This document shows, piece after piece, positions 59-20,000 of a stretch of DNA of 20,000 nt. Below the pieces are notes generated by a model. That model searched no databases. It worked only from the letters and a program-made list of their open reading frames with translations, and was not told the DNA's origin. This DNA comes from an uncultured Planctomycetaceae bacterium (lineage in GTDB: Bacteria > Planctomycetota > Planctomycetia > Planctomycetales > Planctomycetaceae): NCBI GenBank assembly GCA_963976765.1, contig CAXBME010000005.1:368393-388392 (forward strand), in the 5' to 3' direction. Every line of letters starts with the position of its first letter. Position 1 is the first letter of the stretch. Position numbers and translations under genes: made by a program.

Positions 59-413
<355 letters not shown>

Positions 414-417
414 TCTT

Positions 418-589: not shown

Positions 590-616
590 TAAATCCATTC
601 ATTGAAAGGGCTGGCA

Positions 617-2404
617 ATGCCCATCCGTACCAAGAAGAAGTGGAAGCGAGACAGCCGAGGACATTTCCCAAGAGAGCTTGGGCAGAAGAGGACCGATTCC
701 GGGAAACTTGTGCCGCACAAGTTTCGGCTGAAATGCAATGAAGAGGCTGAGGCTGTCAGAAGGAACGCCCGACTGGAAGAGCTATGGCTCGCCATTGAAA
801 GCGAGGCCGAGAAGTTCGATTGGGAACCGCTCTGGAACGAACTGACGATCATGATCGGGCAGCAGATCGCAGAGGGCAGATACACAATCGAAGTCAGCAA
901 ATTCGAGAAAGACAGTCCCGACGCCTACGCTCGATACATCAACCGGCTCCAGACATCATTCCCGATGGTCACATTTGTTCCGGCACGTGGGTTGACCGAG
1001 GTTTTCGAAGAGGGGGCAGAAGATGCTCGCAGGAAGGCCAGCCGCTCTCTGAAGAAACGCATGGCAGAGTTTCGTGCTGAATTCGAGGATAAGCTCGTTC
1101 GGTTCGGGGGCCTCACTCGTGATGACGCCATGAACGGTTCAGAGATGCTTCACGAAGCACTGGACGAGTACGTGGAATACATCAAGACCACTGATATTCA
1201 ACCGGGCACCGACATCCTGACCGATTACGGCCAAATGAAAATCAACAACGTCGAGAGGCTCAAGGAACGCCATAACAATATTCCGCTCAAGTCGCTCTCG
1301 ACATTCGACAGCGTTCAGGCTTTGCTGAACATCTGGAGAAATCGGCCACTGGTAAAGAACTCCGATCCTCCTCGTCCTGTTACCATTAAAACTGCACGAC
1401 ACCACATTGCCGAGTTGATGCGGTTTCTTCGATGGTTGAATCGAACATCACACTTCGATTGGCGGAAGCCCCGTGACTTTGATGAACTCGACACTCGTGT
1501 CAAAGAAACACCGCAGGAGAAGAAGAGGCGCAATGGGCACACGCAAGTGGCCACATACACGATTGAGGAACTCAAGCTGCTGAATGAATACGCCACTCCA
1601 CTCGAACGGTTACTGCTGTTGCTGGGTCTCAATTGCGGTTTCGGGGCAGCCGAACAAGGTCGAGTAACCCTTTCAGACATCTTCCTGAACCAGCATCACC
1701 CAAATATCGAGTTGTTACAGCAACACGAATTGATGCACGAATTCGAGTGTCGCCCGACCGATAGCTTCCTGATGACATCTCGCCCCAAGACAGGAGTGTG
1801 GGGGGAATGGCTACTTTGGCCGCAGACAGTTGAGGCCATCAAATGGGGTCGTCAGCGTCGTGAGCGCATTGGCGGTGCGAACCAAGATGCCCTCTTGCTT
1901 GTAACCAGTCGAGGTACTCCGTTTTTGAAATCAACGTCAGCCGGAAACAGAAGCCAGAACTTCTCCAGACGATGGGCGGATTTGAACGGACGAGTCAAAA
2001 AAGAACACAACAGCTTTCCCACGCTGAGTTTTGGCAAGCTGAGAAAAACTGCCGGTACGATGATCCGCCACATGGCTGGTGGAGAGATTGCCGGGATTTT
2101 CCTGTGCCACGGGACGCCAGATCGAGGCAATGACCTTCTTGATGTTTACACTGATCGCCCATTCCCGAAACTGTTTACTGCATTACGTGACCTTCAGGAA
2201 AAACTAGCTCCCGTCTTTGATGCAGCACCGAATGATCTTTTTGCACAGCCGACTCAGCAGTACACGGGATTGTCCAAGATCAAACGCATTTACAAATTGA
2301 AAGACGACGGGATGCCGGTCCGTGACATCGCAATGGAAGTTGGAATCTCCAAGAGTGCTGTCCATCGGCATTTGAAGGCACGAGCCGAGAAGGCGAAGGT
2401 TTAG
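617..2404 (+). CDS. Atypical tyrosine recombinase/integrase with C-terminal helix-turn-helix
   Basis: Position next to ssrA; box I-like LLLGLNCGFG, RPKT lysine, box II-like FGKLRKT, FLCH and downstream VY tyrosine; C-terminal GMPVRDIAMEVGISKSAVHRHL HTH. ATG 617 (after GAAAGGG) preferred over TTG 602. Confidence 0.8.
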   Translation: MPIRTKKKWKRDSRGHFPRELGQKRTDSGKLVPHKFRLKCNEEAEAVRRNARLEELWLAIESEAEKFDWEPLWNELTIMIGQQIAEGRYTIEVSKFEKDSPDAYARYINRLQTSFPMVTFVPARGLTEVFEEGAEDARRKASRSLKKRMAEFRAEFEDKLVRFGGLTRDDAMNGSEMLHEALDEYVEYIKTTDIQPGTDILTDYGQMKINNVERLKERHNNIPLKSLSTFDSVQALLNIWRNRPLVKNSDPPRPVTIKTARHHIAELMRFLRWLNRTSHFDWRKPRDFDELDTRVKETPQEKKRRNGHTQVATYTIEELKLLNEYATPLERLLLLLGLNCGFGAAEQGRVTLSDIFLNQHHPNIELLQQHELMHEFECRPTDSFLMTSRPKTGVWGEWLLWPQTVEAIKWGRQRRERIGGANQDALLLVTSRGTPFLKSTSAGNRSQNFSRRWADLNGRVKKEHNSFPTLSFGKLRKTAGTMIRHMAGGEIAGIFLCHGTPDRGNDLLDVYTDRPFPKLFTALRDLQEKLAPVFDAAPNDLFAQPTQQYTGLSKIKRIYKLKDDGMPVRDIAMEVGISKSAVHRHLKARAEKAKV

Positions 2405-2461
2405 AAAGCTCTGGTGATGACACCCGCATGGCCTCCACCTTGAAACTCGGTGGAGGCCCAG

Positions 2462-2935
2462 ATGAACCAGATAACCAACTCTCTCTTCCGTTTTGGCGTT
2501 TTCGCTATCGGCTTCGCTGTCGCAGTAATCGCCTTTCTCGCCGTCGTTGGAATTGGCGGCCTTGTGTTGCCAGTGCTGCTGGGTTCTCTTGTCGGCGTGA
2601 CGCTGCTCGTGCTCGTCTGTTGGGGAGGCAGCCACCTACTCGGCCATCTCTTTCTCGGCCACGACCCTGCGTACCGGGAATGGTGCCGTAAGAGCGACCC
2701 TTGGTTTGACACCCTGCCTCCGCCATTCCGAGCACCGGATAGTCATCACGCTCCATACCAGTGTCTCCGATGTCATGGCGGCATGTGGTCCATCAATTGT
2801 GTCTGTCCATCTTGTGGCTTTGGCAGAAATGAAATGGTGTGCCCGTGTGGAGTCGAAGTGGTGCAGCCTCACGAGAACGCTTTCGAAACTACCGGAGTTG
2901 TTTGCTGGAATTGCCACCGCATCCTGAATCGGTAG
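2462..2935 (+). CDS. Hypothetical membrane protein with Cys-rich (zinc-ribbon-like) C-terminus
   Basis: GGAGG at 2452-2456 before ATG 2462; long hydrophobic stretch (about two TM helices); CLRC, CPSC, CPCG and CWNC motifs. Confidence 0.7.
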   Translation: MNQITNSLFRFGVFAIGFAVAVIAFLAVVGIGGLVLPVLLGSLVGVTLLVLVCWGGSHLLGHLFLGHDPAYREWCRKSDPWFDTLPPPFRAPDSHHAPYQCLRCHGGMWSINCVCPSCGFGRNEMVCPCGVEVVQPHENAFETTGVVCWNCHRILNR

Positions 2936-3194
2936 ACAGCGCCTCCTGAGACTATCGCCGGATATTTTGAGGCCGCTGCCCTTCTCGACATTTGCAGGAT
3001 GCTCCTGACTGTCCAACGAATACCGCCATTCGAACTTTTGTAACCACAATTCCGCAGACGAATCTTCATTCGGTCACGCACACATAAAGACATAGGGGGC
3101 TTGGTCGTTCTACAGGCCATCCCCGCCAGCCGCTTTTCAACATTTCTGACGATCAATTCGCCAAAACAATCTTTGCAACAGGAGTCGGACTGGC

Positions 3195-3229
3195 GAGAGC
3201 CCGCTCGACATTCCTGTCGAGCGGGTCTC
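3195..3229. terminator. Hairpin between convergent genes, probable terminator
   Basis: CCCGCTCGACA (3200-3210) / TGTCGAGCGGG (3215-3225), just downstream of the recombinase stop; no strong T tract. Confidence 0.5.
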
Positions 3230-3247
3230 CTGATTTCGGGGCGGGTG

Positions 3248-3982
3248 TTACAGGTCAACTTCCTTCATGGCAGACTGGTACTTGTCTTCAAGCTGACCAT
3301 CGAGAGCGACGTGCTGATAGACGGCAAGTGTCTCCCGCCGAGCGTGACCGGTGATGAGTTGCAGTTCAGCATCGGCCATCCCGGAATGCCGGGTCAGCCA
3401 TGTGATGGCTTGATGCCGGAAAGTATGAGGCGTTGCCTGTACGCCAGCTTCTTCTGCGTACCGCTTGACGATCTGCTGGATTCTGCGAGTCGAGAACCGG
3501 GAAGCTCTTCGTGTCTGGAAGAGCCAGCGATTGTGTGGGTGATTGGCCATGTGAGTCCGCAGTGCCGTGCCAAACGACTTTCCGAATAGCACGTAGCGGT
3601 CCTTCGAGCCTTTGCCCTGTTCGATCCTGATCTTGTGGTTGTCCAGATCAACGTCTTCGATTTTCATAGCACAGAGTTCTGAGACTCGGACACCGGTGAA
3701 GAACATCAGTCGAAGCATCAGGCTGTGCTGGACATCATCGGCCTGATCCACGATCCGATAAAAGCGCCGGAACTCGTCGCCGGTCAGAACTCGGGGCAGT
3801 CGCCGCCCCTTCTTCTTCGGGCTGAGGTCGCATTCCTGCCGGACCCGCTTGGAGATGTACCGCCAGTCGTCATAGTCGAGTCCAGCCTTGCGGATGATCC
3901 GACTGATCTGCGAGACGATCTTGGACTTGTCTGATTTCGCTTTTCCGTTTTGTGATGCGCCACTGGCCTTGTTTGAGGGCAT
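3248..3982 (-). CDS. XerC/D-like tyrosine recombinase (resolvase type, short N-terminus)
   Basis: Complete catalytic set: TGVRVSEL (R), GKGSKDR (K), TPHTFRH (HxxR), ITGH (H), AVY (Y). ATG 3982 has an AGGAG RBS; the ORF track start is 4057. Confidence 0.93.
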   Translation of the reverse strand: MPSNKASGASQNGKAKSDKSKIVSQISRIIRKAGLDYDDWRYISKRVRQECDLSPKKKGRRLPRVLTGDEFRRFYRIVDQADDVQHSLMLRLMFFTGVRVSELCAMKIEDVDLDNHKIRIEQGKGSKDRYVLFGKSFGTALRTHMANHPHNRWLFQTRRASRFSTRRIQQIVKRYAEEAGVQATPHTFRHQAITWLTRHSGMADAELQLITGHARRETLAVYQHVALDGQLEDKYQSAMKEVDL

Positions 3983-4080
3983 TCTTGGTGCTCCTGACGG
4001 GCTGAATCGTTCGTTGAATTTCGTGAACTGACTGTTCTGCGAAATTGCGGGTGCCATGTTGGACGCTCATGTCATGAAGA

Positions 4081-4112
4081 GCCCCGGAGCATCAACCTTG
4101 ATGCTCCGGGGC
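4081..4112 (-). terminator. Strong GC-rich hairpin after the 83-aa gene
   Basis: Perfect inverted repeat GCCCCGGAGCATCAA (4081-4095) / TTGATGCTCCGGGGC (4098-4112); only a short TCTT tail on the minus strand. Confidence 0.6.
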
Positions 4113-4124
4113 AGCCAACGACCA

Positions 4125-4376
4125 TCACTCAGGCTCAAAGGAATAATACAGGCGTGGGTCATGTTGAAACTTGACGCTCCCCCTGATTCCGCCTGTCTTT
4201 CGCTGGACGACACAGAACGGGGCCATGAACCCGAGGACTGTGAACTCTTGCTGGAGTTCTGAAGTCGTCCACACGTTTCCGACACCGTGCTTTTCTTCCA
4301 GCAGTCCCTTCGGGCTGGGATTCCGATTGATCTCTCGTTGTTCATTGCGGCGGATGGTTTCGATTGCGTCGTTCAT
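4125..4376 (-). CDS. Hypothetical protein (83 aa)
   Basis: GGAG RBS, protein-like composition, co-oriented with the cluster, preceded by the boundary motif. Confidence 0.75.
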   Translation of the reverse strand: MNDAIETIRRNEQREINRNPSPKGLLEEKHGVGNVWTTSELQQEFTVLGFMAPFCVVQRKTGGIRGSVKFQHDPRLYYSFEPE

Positions 4377-4430
4377 GCGTTACTCCGGTCAAAGGTGAAG
4401 TGGACTCAACGTCTCGATCACGGGTGTCAT

Positions 4431-4859
4431 TCATGAGGCCAGTTGAGACCGCTTTCGCTGTCGTTTTTCTTTCTGCCGGGCGTGATGCTCACGCACCTGT
4501 TGCCGCCACTCTGAGTTGCCGCCGTAGCGTGCCATCGGAACCAAATCGAAATACCTGAGCGGGCACGAGAAGCAATATGGACCGCAGGATTCTGACATGT
4601 CTTTGAATCCCCATTGCCCGGCGTGACATCGAATCAGGTCACAGGTGATCCAGCGTTGTTCAGGTTCAACTTCAACACCGTCCTTCTCAAACGTGCATTG
4701 CCACACTCCCCACAGCACACCGCTGAATCGTCCGCCACGAAAGCAGTGAGCAAGACAAACTCTTTTGACGGTCATGTCTTCGCCCTCACGCTCCCAAGCC
4801 TTGGTACGGTCTTCAATCAGGTTCCTTCGTGTCGCCGCTTGTGGATAAGTCCAGCCCAT
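4431..4859 (-). CDS. DUF6927-like protein of mobile elements
   Basis: N-terminal MGWT and WGFKDMSESCGPY...CP...WR motifs resemble DUF6927 (recalled, not searched); GGAG RBS. Confidence 0.7.
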   Translation of the reverse strand: MGWTYPQAATRRNLIEDRTKAWEREGEDMTVKRVCLAHCFRGGRFSGVLWGVWQCTFEKDGVEVEPEQRWITCDLIRCHAGQWGFKDMSESCGPYCFSCPLRYFDLVPMARYGGNSEWRQQVREHHARQKEKRQRKRSQLAS

Positions 4860-4870
4860 GTTGGTACTCC

Positions 4871-4905
4871 AAAAAGAAAGGCCAGTGAGTTCGTGCTCAC
4901 TGGCC
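4871..4905 (-). terminator. Terminator/attenuator-like hairpin in the leader of the DUF6927-like gene
   Basis: Perfect 10-bp stem GGCCAGTGAG/CTCACTGGCC (4880-4905), followed on the minus strand by TTTCTTTTT and then directly GGAG and ATG. Confidence 0.7.
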
Positions 4906-4931
4906 GTGCGGGTGTTCGATTTAAGGGGCCT

Positions 4932-5081
4932 CTAGCGAACCGCTTCGGTCTCGATCCGTTGCAGTGCCTCGTCAGACGGCTCGTCAGATGGATCGAATGG
5001 TAAATCGTCAAAGAGGTCGAACTCGTCGGCGACTTGATCGAGAACGTCGTAGTCGTCTTCGGTGAAGTGGAAGTCGTTCAT
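4932..5081 (-). CDS. Very acidic 49-aa protein
   Basis: ATG 5081 with GGAG RBS inside the 117-aa track ORF; 18 of 49 residues are D/E, with no K and 2 R. Confidence 0.65.
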   Translation of the reverse strand: MNDFHFTEDDYDVLDQVADEFDLFDDLPFDPSDEPSDEALQRIETEAVR

Positions 5082-5177
5082 TTCTGTCTCCAGTAATCGA
5101 GTGAGTGATTGACTGAAGACGTGGCGGGTGTCCGGTAAAATGGCCGCTGGCCACATAAATAGATCACGGAGGATCGA

Positions 5178-5735
5178 ATGTCTGAGTACCGTAGTGACCA
5201 TCTGACAGCCGCCACGTTTCGTGGCTATCAGCCCACTGAAGACTTCACTGACCTCATCCATGAGGCAGAGGAAGACCGTATCCATGCGGCGTTGACGAGC
5301 GGCAATCTACGAGCCGTGTTCAATGGCGCATCGGCAGCATCACAGGCAGATGATCCGTCGTTGTTTCTGGCCTTGCTGCAACGAGCCTTCCAGCAGGCGT
5401 GTGACGTTGAACAATGGGACGTTGTTGATGAGGCCGAGATAGACATCGCCACGGCGCTGGAAATGGTCCAGTTCGAGTGCCTTGAATCGTTGGCTTTGTG
5501 CGGTGAAGAGGCTGTTGCCTTGCTGGCATCAGTGCTGCAAGGAACCAACGATACTTTGATGTTTTCCGTGTTGAATGGGATCAAGGCCAGTGCCGATTCC
5601 GTGTTTGTTCCCATCGTCCACGGCTTCAAGCAGGAGCTTGAACATCTCGCCGTCCACGCTGACTCAGTGTCGCATTTGAATGATGCCGCCAACGAAGCAC
5701 TGGCAGCATGTTCTTCTGAGCTACAGCAGTTGTGA
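5178..5735 (+). CDS. Hypothetical acidic, Ala/Leu-rich helical protein (185 aa)
   Basis: GGAGG RBS before ATG; fills the gap between minus-strand genes; no recognised motif. Confidence 0.7.
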   Translation: MSEYRSDHLTAATFRGYQPTEDFTDLIHEAEEDRIHAALTSGNLRAVFNGASAASQADDPSLFLALLQRAFQQACDVEQWDVVDEAEIDIATALEMVQFECLESLALCGEEAVALLASVLQGTNDTLMFSVLNGIKASADSVFVPIVHGFKQELEHLAVHADSVSHLNDAANEALAACSSELQQL

Positions 5736-5796
5736 GGTCGCCTTGTGAGGTAGTCCAGAACTAGCGTCGGAAGGGCTTGTCCTGAAGGCGTGGGTG

Positions 5797-6708
5797 TCAG
5801 GCTTCAGCCTCAGCTTCGAGACGTTTCCTGACCCGGAAGTAGCTGGCTCGACTCTTCCCGGTGGCCTTGCACCAATGTTGCTGCTGGTCTGCTGTTGATT
5901 CTGGATGCCGCTTGATTGCATCCCGCAGTGCCTTGAGGTCTGCCGACTTGTTGTCGAGTCGTTTCGTGGCAATCTGCTTCCTGCCAAGTGACGACAACTG
6001 GCTCTTCAGTAACGGGCGGAAATCGATGCCTACGTCTCTGGCATAGCGGAATTTGCGAAGGCTGCTTCCTAGAAGCCGCAGGCTTAGCTGCCGGTCTTCA
6101 GACTCCTGTTCGATGTAATCAATCACGGTCTCGCAGTCCTCGACACTCAATTGGTCGAAGCCATTACGGGACAGATGCCGCATCATTTCGATGACCTCTC
6201 CGTTCGTGGCGGAAAGCTCGAACTGATCGCATCTCGTCAAGACAGCATCGAAGGCGTTATTGCTCTTTGGGATGACGTTGCAGGCAAAAACACAGCGAGA
6301 CGTGAACTCGAAACTGCTTGGCAGATCGGCAAGTTGGCTGCTCCCGTAGGTGACGATTCTTGGATTGCCCCACAAAGCCGATCTGAGCAATCCAAGATGC
6401 GCCATGGATGACGACGAGAACATCGAGTCCACGTCATCAAAGAAAATCACGGCGTCATCTCTGTGGGTCCACAACGTCGCAAAGAGCGCTAATGGAGTGA
6501 TGTGGCTGTTAATAAGCACTGGCTCGATGCCGCATTCTTCCAGCGTAGAGAGGATTACCCTGCTTTTGCCCAAACCTCCCTGTGCGCCAAAAACGAAGAG
6601 CCCCGCCGTCATCTTCCGTGCCAGAAGGCGGACGTGATGGGCCAGCAATTGCTGTTTCTTTTCCAATGCCAACAATGGTTCTGTGCCGTGCGAGTCGTCG
6701 AATGACAT
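5797..6708 (-). CDS. P-loop (AAA+-like) ATPase with possible C-terminal HTH
   Basis: Walker A-like GAQGGLGKS, Walker B VIFFDD, ACN sensor-like and LTR Arg-finger-like segments; C-terminal TGKSRASYFR. ATG 6708 has a GGAG RBS. Confidence 0.8.
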   Translation of the reverse strand: MSFDDSHGTEPLLALEKKQQLLAHHVRLLARKMTAGLFVFGAQGGLGKSRVILSTLEECGIEPVLINSHITPLALFATLWTHRDDAVIFFDDVDSMFSSSSMAHLGLLRSALWGNPRIVTYGSSQLADLPSSFEFTSRCVFACNVIPKSNNAFDAVLTRCDQFELSATNGEVIEMMRHLSRNGFDQLSVEDCETVIDYIEQESEDRQLSLRLLGSSLRKFRYARDVGIDFRPLLKSQLSSLGRKQIATKRLDNKSADLKALRDAIKRHPESTADQQQHWCKATGKSRASYFRVRKRLEAEAEA

Positions 6709-6755
6709 CTGGATTCTCCAGTAGAACAATTTGGGTGATGGCTTACTTGCGGGTG

Positions 6756-7160
6756 TCATTCCAGTCCGAGTTCTTCCCTGCCGACGTACTGGCCATATTC
6801 GTCAATCCCCAGAACCATCAGGATGCTGCTCTGGAGCGACGTTGCAGCGTCCCAGATGTCTTCTGCCGAATGTTGGTCGTTGTCCTTGAAGTCCGTATCG
6901 CCGAGTCTTCTGAGAAGCACACAGATCGAATGAGGCGTCACCTCGCATCGTCCCGTGTTCTCGAACACATCTGCCGGATCGCAGATGGCTTCCAGATGCG
7001 AATCAATCCCCCGATTCACGCATTGGGCAATTGCCGCCCATTCAATCGGGCACCGAATCAACATCGGGAATGGATCACTTCCCGTGGCTTCAATGGCTTT
7101 GCGAACTGTCGAGTACGGAAGCTCGATCAGGTCAGAGTTGGTGATCGTAGCTGTCGTCAT
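6756..7160 (-). CDS. Hypothetical acidic protein (134 aa)
   Basis: ATG 7160 (MTTATIT) after GGCGGA; co-oriented with the cluster; flanked by boundary motifs. Confidence 0.7.
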   Translation of the reverse strand: MTTATITNSDLIELPYSTVRKAIEATGSDPFPMLIRCPIEWAAIAQCVNRGIDSHLEAICDPADVFENTGRCEVTPHSICVLLRRLGDTDFKDNDQHSAEDIWDAATSLQSSILMVLGIDEYGQYVGREELGLE

Positions 7161-7333
7161 TGTGTGGTTCCGCCAGAAAGAAGGGTGGTTACTGACGGAA
7201 GCACGGGTGTCACTGGATAGAGGCACTCCAGAACCACAATGCCGCCGTGACGGGCATCACCAGTGGTCCTGTTCTTTTGGTGTAAGGACCACCGAGAAGC
7301 GACGTGTCACGGCGGCATCCGGGTGTCATGCTG

Positions 7334-7633
7334 CTACTCGTTGTCGAAGTACACGCAGTTGTATCCACCTCGATCAACATGAAATGCGACTGTTCCATGC
7401 TGGCGAACCATGCCAAATGCCAACTCGACAAGCTCATCGTGCGACAACTCAGCAAGCCGTAGTTTCTCTGCTTCGAAGGCTGCATTCGCCGCCTCGAATG
7501 CTTGTTGATAGACGACTGAGAATCGATCCGAGGCGATGGCCTTTGTGAGTGCCTCGTCTGGCCACTCTTCGAGCATGCTGTGGATTGCATCCCAAAGGTC
7601 GTCGGGAATCGTGAATGGCTCTGGCATGTGCAT
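7334..7633 (-). CDS. Hypothetical acidic protein (about 99 aa)
   Basis: Protein-like composition, directly downstream of ardC; start may be 7633 or 7627. Confidence 0.65.
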   Translation of the reverse strand: MHMPEPFTIPDDLWDAIHSMLEEWPDEALTKAIASDRFSVVYQQAFEAANAAFEAEKLRLAELSHDELVELAFGMVRQHGTVAFHVDRGGYNCVYFDNE

Positions 7634-7687
7634 CTCAATCTGTGCATGACGGACTCGGCTTACTTAGTCGAGTCCGAGAAAAGTCTG

Positions 7688-8590
7688 TCAGGAGGCCACC
7701 ATTGCGGGTGTCTGCGCTTCAGCAGTGGAACCAGAGTCATCCACACAGTTGAGAAGGAACGAGACTGTTTTGGCCGACTGTGATGCCGCTTGGAAGATCA
7801 CAGAATGGTTCTGACGAATGGCTTCAATCCAGCTTTTCAAATAGGCCGCTGAATTGTCATTCGTCGCCTGTGTGGCCAGTCCGAAATGGGCCATCAATGT
7901 GCAGGCAGAAATCTCAGCGACCAATTCACCAAAGCCGTAACTGTGTCCCGGCACTGTTCGGTCAAATCCTGTTCGTGATTCCGCAAAATGAGAGAGTTCG
8001 TGAAAAGCGGTTTCGTAATAGGCTTCGGGAGATTCGAAACGATGTTTCGCTGGCAGGGTGACTTCATCCGTGGCCGGGCAGTACGACGCTTGCTGACCTG
8101 TCCTGATTGTGCAGCCAACCGAATCAATGAGCCGTTCCGCAGCCTCGTGTCGTTCGAAGACCGTGCTGGACTCGTCAGGATCATCCACATGCAGATGCTT
8201 CAGCGTCGTCTGCTGTCCATTGAAGACAACGAAGCTCTTCATGATCGCAAACGTGCTTTCGGACTCGTCCCCGTTTGCGTCAATCGTTGTCTTCTTCACC
8301 GGCTTGAACAGAACTATTCGTGTCCCACGCTGACCTTTGAGGACGCTTCCCTGCATGGCTTTGATCTGACGGAACGTCCCCCACCATTTGCTCTCGTACC
8401 CGTACTTCCATGCGGAGCACATCAGGAGCAGTTGGTTGATGCCGGTGTAGACGTTGCCAGTCGAAAGAGAAGTGGCGAGACCGCTGTTTCTGCTGATAGT
8501 CCAGCTTCGACGCCAAGGCAACAGGTCGCCTTCCATCGCCTCAAGGATGCGGGCAACAACGTCCGCCTGAATTTCTGATCGAGTCTGCAT
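7688..8590 (-). CDS. ardC: ArdC-family ssDNA-binding antirestriction protein (DUF1738 plus zincin-like domain)
   Basis: LPWRRSW, YTGINQLLL, WGTFRQ, FHELSH (HExxH), ELVAEIS and AYLKSW motifs; GGAGG RBS before ATG 8590. Confidence 0.93.
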   Translation of the reverse strand: MQTRSEIQADVVARILEAMEGDLLPWRRSWTISRNSGLATSLSTGNVYTGINQLLLMCSAWKYGYESKWWGTFRQIKAMQGSVLKGQRGTRIVLFKPVKKTTIDANGDESESTFAIMKSFVVFNGQQTTLKHLHVDDPDESSTVFERHEAAERLIDSVGCTIRTGQQASYCPATDEVTLPAKHRFESPEAYYETAFHELSHFAESRTGFDRTVPGHSYGFGELVAEISACTLMAHFGLATQATNDNSAAYLKSWIEAIRQNHSVIFQAASQSAKTVSFLLNCVDDSGSTAEAQTPAMVAS

Positions 8591-8975
8591 GAATGCCTCC
8601 GTCGTTGGTGTGAGTGACGAAGGCATTGCGGGTGTCAGAGATTGGCCGAGGGGCTTACACGACCGAATCCCTGAGAATTGAGACGGCGGTTTCAGAACTG
8701 GTTTCAATCTCGGTTGTGGCTGGCATTTCTGACACCGACTCCGGGCCAGACAGGCCAGCACAACTCTCATTCCGGCAGCGGGTTACGATGCAACGTTGAT
8801 GGCCAGTCTCAAGTTTCAAAGAGACCAGCGTTTTCGACGCACCGGCAATGACGGGCCTTGGCTCGATGAGATTTATCTCAGTCTTTATCTCGTCGCCACG
8901 ATTCCCGGCGAAGAGCAGCTTTGGTAAGGTTTGACAAGAACAAACGATGTTCCGACAGGTCGATGAGATCGTCAC

Positions 8976-19958: not shown

Positions 19959-20000
19959 TCAAAACGGACCCACTTCGGGGAGCTGATCGGCGTTGAAAAT

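Follow-up and report, generated by a model that had tools for sequence, protein, structure and literature searches.

The DNA analysed here is a 20,000-nucleotide (nt) stretch from an uncultured Planctomycetaceae bacterium (the window, taken as the whole stretch), which forms the end of contig C5, the contig stopping at position 20000. It carries a genomic island with relatives in Planctomycetota, and our subject is a 12-nt box repeated before the genes of this island, a candidate promoter of the mobile element, together with the hairpins that follow some of its copies. The left edge of the island is the transfer-messenger RNA (tmRNA) gene (59-416, plus strand; Rfam RF00023), which is the probable integration site. 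After it come a putative integrase, a Cys-rich gene, an array of genes on the minus strand, a helix-turn-helix (HTH) gene and a restriction-modification block. The 600-amino-acid integrase (602-2404, plus strand) was called by its position and by eye, as Pfam gave only a C-terminal HTH, and it has homologues in L011, L015 and L036. The Cys-rich gene (2462-2935, plus strand) encodes a membrane/zinc-ribbon protein of 157 amino acids (aa), whose homologue in L015 has a zinc-ribbon match. The minus-strand array starts with ardC (7688-8590; ArdcN plus a zincin-like domain) and continues with genes for proteins of 99 aa (7334-7633) and 134 aa (6756-7160), an AAA+ ATPase with a C-terminal HTH-like end (5797-6708), a 185-aa cargo gene which lies antisense between two boxes (5178-5735, plus strand), an acidic peptide of 48 aa (4932-5078; family of nine), proteins of 142 aa (4431-4859) and 83 aa (4125-4376; phage-like family) and a Xer-like tyrosine recombinase (3248-3988). 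Between 9204 and 18824, an SNF2 helicase, an N6/N4 methyltransferase and a ResIII protein make up a type III-like restriction-modification block beside this anti-restriction array.

The heptamer ACACCCG is found 13 times in the window, against 2.33 expected, and 12 copies of the box head units of the island, two of them with one mismatch (ACACCCA at 5797 and GCACCCG at 4054). The consensus is T-G-A-C-A-C-C-C-G-C-W-A, and its first base is numbered as position 0. The box is asymmetric, and its direction follows the genes, divergent flanking genes included. On the plus strand it precedes the Cys-rich gene (TGACACCCGCAT, 2418-2429). On the minus strand it precedes ardC (TGACACCCGCAA, 8626-8637), the 134-aa gene (TGACACCCGTGC, 7201-7212), the acidic peptide (GGACACCCGCCA, 5122-5133), the 142-aa gene (4906-4917), the 83-aa gene (4418-4429) and, in the degenerate form TGGCACCCGCAA, the Xer gene (4045-4056). 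Boxes are also found inside the coding sequences of ardC, the ATPase and Xer, before antisense genes and past the last gene. In the window, one minus-strand copy lies within the final ardC codons (7702-7713), others sit on the stop codons of the 134-aa gene (6747-6758), the ATPase (5788-5799) and Xer (3239-3250, the terminal box), and TGACACCCGGAT lies at 7317-7328.

Related islands have boxes of their own. At least 26 of the 60 loci with Xer relatives have a strand-biased word before their genes, each element with its own word (GGACACCGGCCA, GGATACCnGCTA, AGGCACCTGCTA, GGAGACC, GACACCGACT, TAGTTTTCCTGTACA, TCGCCCTCC and others); further box arrays were found through ArdC and ATPase searches, and 63 of the 301 family genomes gave ardC matches. 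A second element with the same box lies in the own genome of the bacterium on contig C41 (L061, L062), where about 20 more copies stand before related genes; its genes include PrimPol-D5, serine recombinases, a box-led extracytoplasmic function (ECF) sigma factor with a Ser/Thr kinase, a GYF-domain gene and a type I restriction-like block. A host-specific box was rejected, because one genome has two arrays with GGACACCG in only one of them and because L036, L058 and L038 mix two box classes, as also observed in the arrays of L056 and L033. A palindromic operator (TGACA-N13-YGTSA) was rejected because its right half does not mirror the box across families, and a primase or Chi-type site because orientation tracks the genes and not one strand. 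The viral contigs searched returned neither relatives of Xer or the ATPase nor an 83-aa locus; the 21 pattern matches there were single ones, outside any array, and homologues of box-led genes were absent. As to the other box classes, TCGCCCT-N14/15-GGTT resembles an ECF -35/-10 promoter and TAGTTTTCCTGTACA a -10-to-start block, and a near-perfect inverted copy of TAGTTTTCCTGTACA stands at an array end (L036:11512). Mini-units of 65-66 base pairs (bp), running from box to box, lie right before ardC at L001:5145-5210 and in stretches of G237 and G058. FastTree trees were built for the ArdC and 83-aa proteins; their automatic box labels cannot be relied on for the TCGCCC and TTGGAC classes.

To evaluate the stems, leader folding was scored against shuffled sequences (z), with a fixed 50-nt window for the count over the 12 boxes, and seven of the 12 gave z below -2. 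Four stems bury the Shine-Dalgarno (SD) sequence. The initial annotation had described these four, and they are present with the arms and positions it gave and fold better than shuffles. The ardC stem (8592-8627, minus strand) has z -4.85, and its energy changes from -17.6 kcal/mol in full to -4.0 when the RNA is cut at 8618. For the Cys-rich gene (2430-2458, plus strand) z is -4.82, with -21.2 kcal/mol in full and -3.5 when cut at 2437, the predicted start which its 5' arm spans; its C41 orthologue shows one compensatory change. The stem of the acidic peptide (5086-5120, minus strand; z -2.83) falls from -15.3 to -6.2 kcal/mol on cutting, and that of the 134-aa gene (7168-7200, minus strand; z -2.00, 7 of 200 shuffles being as good) from -12.8 to -2.5, with a compensatory change in L136.

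The other stems are of different kinds. The stem after the copy at 4908 is indeed strong (4880-4905, minus strand; z -5.31), but it is a hairpin followed by a U-run with the SD outside, and is therefore read as an intrinsic terminator; 13 terminator-like stems were counted among 308 boxes. The stem after 4047 folds (z -2.93), but it belongs to a dif-like DNA site (4018-4045, minus strand; 28 bp, a single copy in the window) and is not a leader lock. After 7319, the strong signal (z -5.77) comes not from a leader stem but from a 105-nt rod-like unit between two boxes (7215-7319, minus strand), which has no homologue in the loci compared. This rod carries a 15-codon hydrophobic ORF (open reading frame; 7210-7257), with the SD within the inner stem and the next box as stop. 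The stem at 5754-5786, after the copy at 5790, is present but weak (z -1.47), and no sense gene follows it, the next gene (5178-5735) being antisense. The stems after 4420 and 6749, already called weak in the initial annotation, fold at chance level (z +0.19 and +0.45), as does that after 7704 (z -0.71); accordingly, the 83-aa gene has no significant stem and the boxes at 6747 and 7702 no lock. Behind the terminal box there is a strong hairpin within 3190-3241 (z -5.10) and no gene. The imperfections of the stems are G-U pairs as had been noted (one each at 8592, 5086 and 7168, two at 5754), but they argue only weakly for a function in mRNA, since the complement often folds better and wobble pairs cannot separate RNA from coding-strand single-stranded DNA (ssDNA): the coding strand folds better in 5 of 12 window units, and overall the count is 118 against 192 of 314 units.

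Across related islands, strong stems are a minority feature, as z below -2 was found downstream of 57 and upstream of 46 of the 314 boxes in 25 array stretches. The host controls come from crude ORF calling in the own genome, and the p-values are overstated because the loci are kin and the pattern limits of the arrays were set by eye. The unpaired share of the SD was below 20% in 53 of 225 units and in 91 of 500 host leaders, and the SD paired with box positions 10-22 in 28 of 140 box-led leaders against 31 of 400 in the host, a threefold enrichment. Prediction and covariation point to SD sequestration in long transcripts for the four window leaders and for this enriched set. For ardC, 41 loci were tried and gave 39 leaders, of which 28 were anchored for a count of covariation and 11 were dropped, including that of the window, whose pairs form in another register. 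The three anchor-adjacent pairs were formed in 69 of 84 cases (shuffle mean 57.3; none of 5000 shuffles as high), and one stem position was paired in 28 of 28 leaders as U-A, C-G, G-C or U-G. By a stricter probability test, 11 of 30 ardC leaders were locked (one of the 11 rows being a wrong internal start), together with 6/15, 4/7, 2/3 and 2/2 in four other gene families, and locks were rare for the ATPase (1/21), the 83-aa gene (2/24) and the acidic peptide (one of nine orthologues). The compared leaders thus indicate that locks are under selection where present. The candidate translational lock of the initial annotation stands for some leaders, in which a selected stem buries the SD, but it is not the general job of the box.

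The position at which transcription may start was examined from the bases downstream of the box. In leaders with the ATG at 44-60, position 18 is a pyrimidine in 91% and position 19 a purine in 93% (n = 137); bacterial transcripts usually start with a pyrimidine at -1 and a purine at +1. This pyrimidine-purine (YR) step at 18|19 is present in 121 of 140 main-class leaders, 17 of 28 short leaders and 87 of 134 boxes without SD and ATG, the background being 133 of 429 GACACCCR matches in the own genome outside C41. In five box families it occurs in 80, 71, 83, 83 and 60% (n = 93, 142, 29, 23 and 40), and its form varies between CA, CG and TG across the families, which means that it does not mirror the box. 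In only 3 of 174 units does the SD begin ahead of position 19, its first base clustering at 19-22, and a covarying element of about 190 nt after ardC, described below, begins at 19-20. The 5' arm ends at 20-22 in 58 of 141 strong stems and straddles 19 in 94, a count made without a null and with a folding window that began at 9, which biases the arm starts. When the RNA is cut at 19, all four window locks collapse, and a start there would bypass the 4880-4905 terminator. From these patterns we infer a start at position 19, inside the 5' arm, in which case the box and most of the arm would be absent from mRNA made from the own promoter. The predicted starts in the window are 8618 for ardC, 7193 for the 134-aa gene, 6739 for the box on the stop of that gene, 5114 for the acidic peptide, 4898 and 4410 for the 142- and 83-aa genes, 3231 for the terminal box and 2437 for the Cys-rich gene. 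Outside the two elements, the own genome yielded no unit of box, YR step, SD and ATG, which makes a host regulon unlikely. The step also occurs in L114/L115 (4000-16800), where 33 of 54 GGACACC copies on the gene strand have it; about two copies are expected in these 13 kb, many of the 54 lie in coding sequence, and they look like runaway accumulation.

Judging from the sequences, the explanation that we favour, and hold to be somewhat probable, is that the box is an element-specific private promoter with its start in the hairpin, so that read-through RNA would be locked and own-promoter RNA open. The box, before nearly every gene of the mobile element and sometimes inside genes, would span about -19 to -8 with no conserved -35. 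In a subset of units, the DNA at 10-22 is complementary to the SD region, which gives a lock, or forms a terminator. Read-through RNA from the tmRNA side, the integrase or neighbouring units would hold the whole 5' arm and be shut or terminated, and box-started RNA would keep 1-3 nt of the arm and be translated. The hairpins would then guard ardC and the other establishment genes against leaky expression, and transcription initiation by a factor other than the sigma-70 of the host would act as the switch. Because a start inside the 5' arm frees the SD, no unlocking small RNA (sRNA) or ribosome would be needed. The mid-array terminator, with its predicted start inside the 5' arm, was counted for this promoter explanation. 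What the sequences show directly is the box, the stems, the fixed YR step, the SD edge, the covariation and where the junctions lie; the start site, the promoter function, the role of the lock and the reader are inferred from them.

Several results weigh against it. Only 8 of the 12 window boxes have the exact YR step, and the TGTAC and TCGCCCT box classes are without the step at position 19. Among the 35 most buried SDs, eight become more than half unpaired on truncation, a gain over the host that is not significant (p 0.29), and in many ardC leaders the arm reaches position 23-25, so that some pairing survives. Furthermore, no reader of the box was found among the candidate families within the array stretches, where 94 box-led or neighbouring proteins were searched and the element of the window was seen up to the contig end at 20000. 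The ECF sigma factor with its kinase was rejected, being cargo in four loci with different boxes, and so was the sigma-like family A2, which is present in 14 of 39 genomes and missing from 25 (six of them single-contig) and has an ECF-like fold only at E 0.03. Box distance is also uncorrelated with the distance of ArdC or of the ATPase (rho -0.02 and -0.005; 28 loci). The HTH of the ATPase was rejected as reader because its KSRASFxR motif is near-invariant across box types, and Xer because it has its own dif-like site and its tree follows box type only loosely. As observations on these families, arrays carry either an AAA+ ATPase with C-terminal HTH (5797-6708 in the window) or a RuvB-like ATPase with an AlpA-like HTH gene (L008:8311-9252 with L011:9459-9908), and the two are almost mutually exclusive. 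A divergent ECF-sigma-like family without a clear Pfam match is found at L003:10797-11342, L012, L021, L004, L009:12491 and L014 and in the own genome at C17:53187-53753; it is box-led in some arrays, lacks the C-terminal HTH in L009 and L014 and reaches up to 18 copies per genome. A bolder proposal, which we regard as doubtful, is that such blocks of 12 nt, placed at about -19 to -8 and lacking a -35, form a promoter class of a new kind, with several mutually exclusive dialects and a reader that is no recognisable sigma, where the block doubles as a crossover point for gene capture and reordering and the array is an integron-like library of establishment genes, each cassette with a promoter and a read-through lock. 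For that class, the reader may be, for instance, the AAA+/HTH protein of the array, a helper-element factor or an RNA-guided complex.

The distance from box to ATG also bears against a start at 19, since its histogram shows a gap (37-44 nt) and, at 30-36, a minor peak, and a start near 33 would account for this equally well. The box could then be a -35-type element with the start in the loop or the 3' arm, near 33-35; the short units, whose ATG is at 30-36, would be leaderless, and locks would exist only in read-through RNA. Bimodality of the distance (118 of 186 at 45-56, 23 at 30-38 and a gap between), the similarity of TGACA to TTGACA and the presence in the same arrays of the TCGCCCT-N15-GGTT class with ECF-like -35/-10 spacing speak for such an element. 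However, the short units have strong, well-spaced SDs at 19-27, no YR or -10 signal is seen at 22-36, and the small hairpin of the 190-nt element (19-32) retains G-U pairs and allows bulges, behaviour expected of a single strand; we consider this possibility unlikely. Position 19 and the region near 33 both lie inside the hairpin.

It is quite unlikely, in our estimate, that the box acts in the mRNA and that a trans-acting protein, an sRNA or a terminating ribosome opens the SD hairpin, as the initial annotation had supposed. The locks are real, threefold enriched and covary in ardC, and a stop codon at position 0, which 51 of 451 boxes have, puts the 5' arm within reach of the ribosome. Unlocking by a factor or sRNA at the box is nevertheless at odds with the predicted start inside the 5' arm, which leaves the box and most of the arm out of the translated mRNA, and inspection of the rod alignment by eye showed no segment complementary to the box. 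Unlocking by a ribosome at an overlapping stop fails for three of the four locked window leaders, which have no stop on the box: no gene of the array precedes ardC, the gene before the acidic peptide is antisense, and the upstream stop of the Cys-rich gene is 14 nt away. Conversely, the units that follow the three long genes with a stop on the box (5799, 6758 and 3250) have no significant SD lock. More generally, 80% of box-led leaders are without a lock, many boxes lie within coding sequence or before antisense genes or no gene, as the copies in L114 illustrate, and this reading would leave the fixed YR step and the mid-array terminator unexplained.

The box could also be an RNA processing signal, with cleavage of a polycistronic RNA at the Y|R step, 8 nt past the box, so that the 5' arm is removed and the SD freed. 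Processing that unlocks translation is known from the RNase III sites of T7, and for the YR step, the SD edge and the arm geometry such cutting is as good an explanation as a promoter. We find it hardly likely, as the mid-array terminator would end the polycistronic RNA, boxes are also present before the first gene and before divergent genes, and no nuclease family was found among the 94 proteins. Still more improbable is an asymmetric operator or stoperator of an element-coded repressor that blocks initiation or elongation, with secondary hairpins. Like such sites, the box is asymmetric, transcription-oriented, element-specific and present in many copies, some inside genes; the 12-13-bp stoperators of Cluster A mycobacteriophages (PMC6550527), also many per element and lineage-divergent, and the Reg576 heptamers of p576 (PMC6294495) are comparable. 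Unlike with stoperators, no repressor co-varies with the box within the stretches compared, and a fixed initiator-like step, which an operator does not predict, follows the box; there is also no host-type promoter alongside, sigma-70-like sites numbering one (on the other strand) against 2.8 expected.

Elements vary widely in gene order, which bears on recombination. The 24 locus pairs compared gave 37 synteny junctions. Of these, 19 have an end that lies, in both partners, between -15 and +20 relative to a box, where length alone would give about 7%; this count is biased upward because shared boxes draw alignment ends. In L036/L058, two adjacent units are swapped, and single, low-depth contigs of relatives show a 20-nt insertion duplicating GACACC at 6751 and a change of neighbour at the 5133 box. 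No joints that would mark excised forms or mini-circles between repeats were found in the contigs of four DNA runs, low-depth sets which drop rare variants. As each unit would bring its own promoter, exchange between short repeated boxes would shuffle whole genes, and the shuffling probably follows from the repetition of the promoter, given that Xer has a site of its own and that arrays with the same box have a serine resolvase at their end. That site is dif-like (consensus ATTTCGCAnAA-N6-GnnCACGAAAT) and precedes 43 of the 43 Xer genes examined from the 60 loci fetched. It has the 11-6-11 form of dif/pdif sites, and its ATTTCGCAnAA arm is as in the tested oligonucleotide ODN4 (PMC7399989); unlike those sites, the one at 4018-4045 adjoins the element's own single Xer-like gene, and its right arm departs from the XerD arm. 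The recombinase itself is 70-80% identical across Planctomycetota, with a serine resolvase in its place in other arrays. An integron was rejected because the IntI type with its extra helix was not recognised: the integron-integrase profile TIGR02249 gave 87 bits against a cut-off of 265, split in two stretches, where XerC/D models match in one. Sites of attC type were rejected because the box lies outside the stems and positions 18-22 do not mirror it across families. Most improbable of all is that the box is the crossover site of integron- or shufflon-like cassettes worked by the recombinase next to it, the hairpins serving as folded attachment sites: the shuffled order, the junctions enriched at boxes, the unit swap, the GACACC duplication and the changed neighbour favour it, but it is opposed by the separate dif-like site, by the serine resolvase at the end of same-box arrays (C41, L094 and G155), by a supposed right half-site that does not mirror the box, by the lack of excision joints in the four contig sets and by the upward bias of the junction count.

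Compared with known systems, the private promoter that we favour is closest to phage T4, in which the late promoter of e, soc, 49 and I-TevI lies inside an SD-sequestering hairpin and is a single block, TATAAATA, read by the non-host factor gp55 (PMC2988022, PMC3014915). There, as predicted here, the SD is buried only in read-through RNA and freed by a start inside the 5' strand of the hairpin. Unlike T4, the present case is an integrated planctomycete element known from sequence alone, with a putative promoter on every unit, a 12-nt block at about -19 to -8 in element-specific variants and no gp55-like factor found. The arrays also resemble the PeSL cassettes of T4-type phages (PMC2839356, PMC4122927), which have a repeated promoter and stem-loop before small genes lacking assigned function, whole genes being shuffled by exchange between repeats and some stems being terminators. 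Here too, indels and swaps break at the repeated, putative promoter unit; a sigma-70-like promoter as in PeSL was not found, with no TAnnnT at fitting positions. As in EGeRS1 and EGeRS2 of pLS20-family plasmids (PMC8708921, PMC6294495), ardC-containing gene sets are mosaic and a repeated signal heads each unit. EGeRS1 is 420-750 bp and blocks read-through, and EGeRS2 has dual heptamers, a sigma-A promoter and a ribbon-helix-helix (RHH) repressor; here, unlike both, there is a single 12-nt box per gene, and no RHH match was found among the 94 proteins. Rfam recognised only the tmRNA in the window and nothing in seven ardC loci at E<=1. No description of such a system was found in the literature searched, which left most subscription papers out of reach.

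A second RNA-like feature accompanies the boxes in relatives. A gene-less unit of about 190 nt, absent from the window, is found in 16 loci, mostly directly after ardC (for example, L062:9282-9490 on the minus strand, L015:6494-6700, L017:5041-5256 and L094:5606-5825, with 12 more loci). It folds into the small hairpin GTCCYGATCGGGAC and then a long covarying rod that ends in a U-rich run. In the 16 sequences, 11 of 27 pairs show two-sided change, and none of 500 shuffles reaches the score. It has no Rfam match and is a candidate non-coding RNA or single-strand origin; an Frpo-type ssDNA promoter, judged by eye, did not fit the rod element.

In conclusion, the private promoter that we propose would extend the T4 promoter-in-hairpin and PeSL designs to integrated elements, and its orthogonal dialects with built-in read-through locks may be useful as genetic parts. 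It gives exact predicted start sites for a phylum with very few described promoters and points to a transcription factor with at least five sequence dialects. For Planctomycetota, it suggests how widespread mobile elements may keep their anti-restriction and establishment genes silent in the chromosome and then activate them together.

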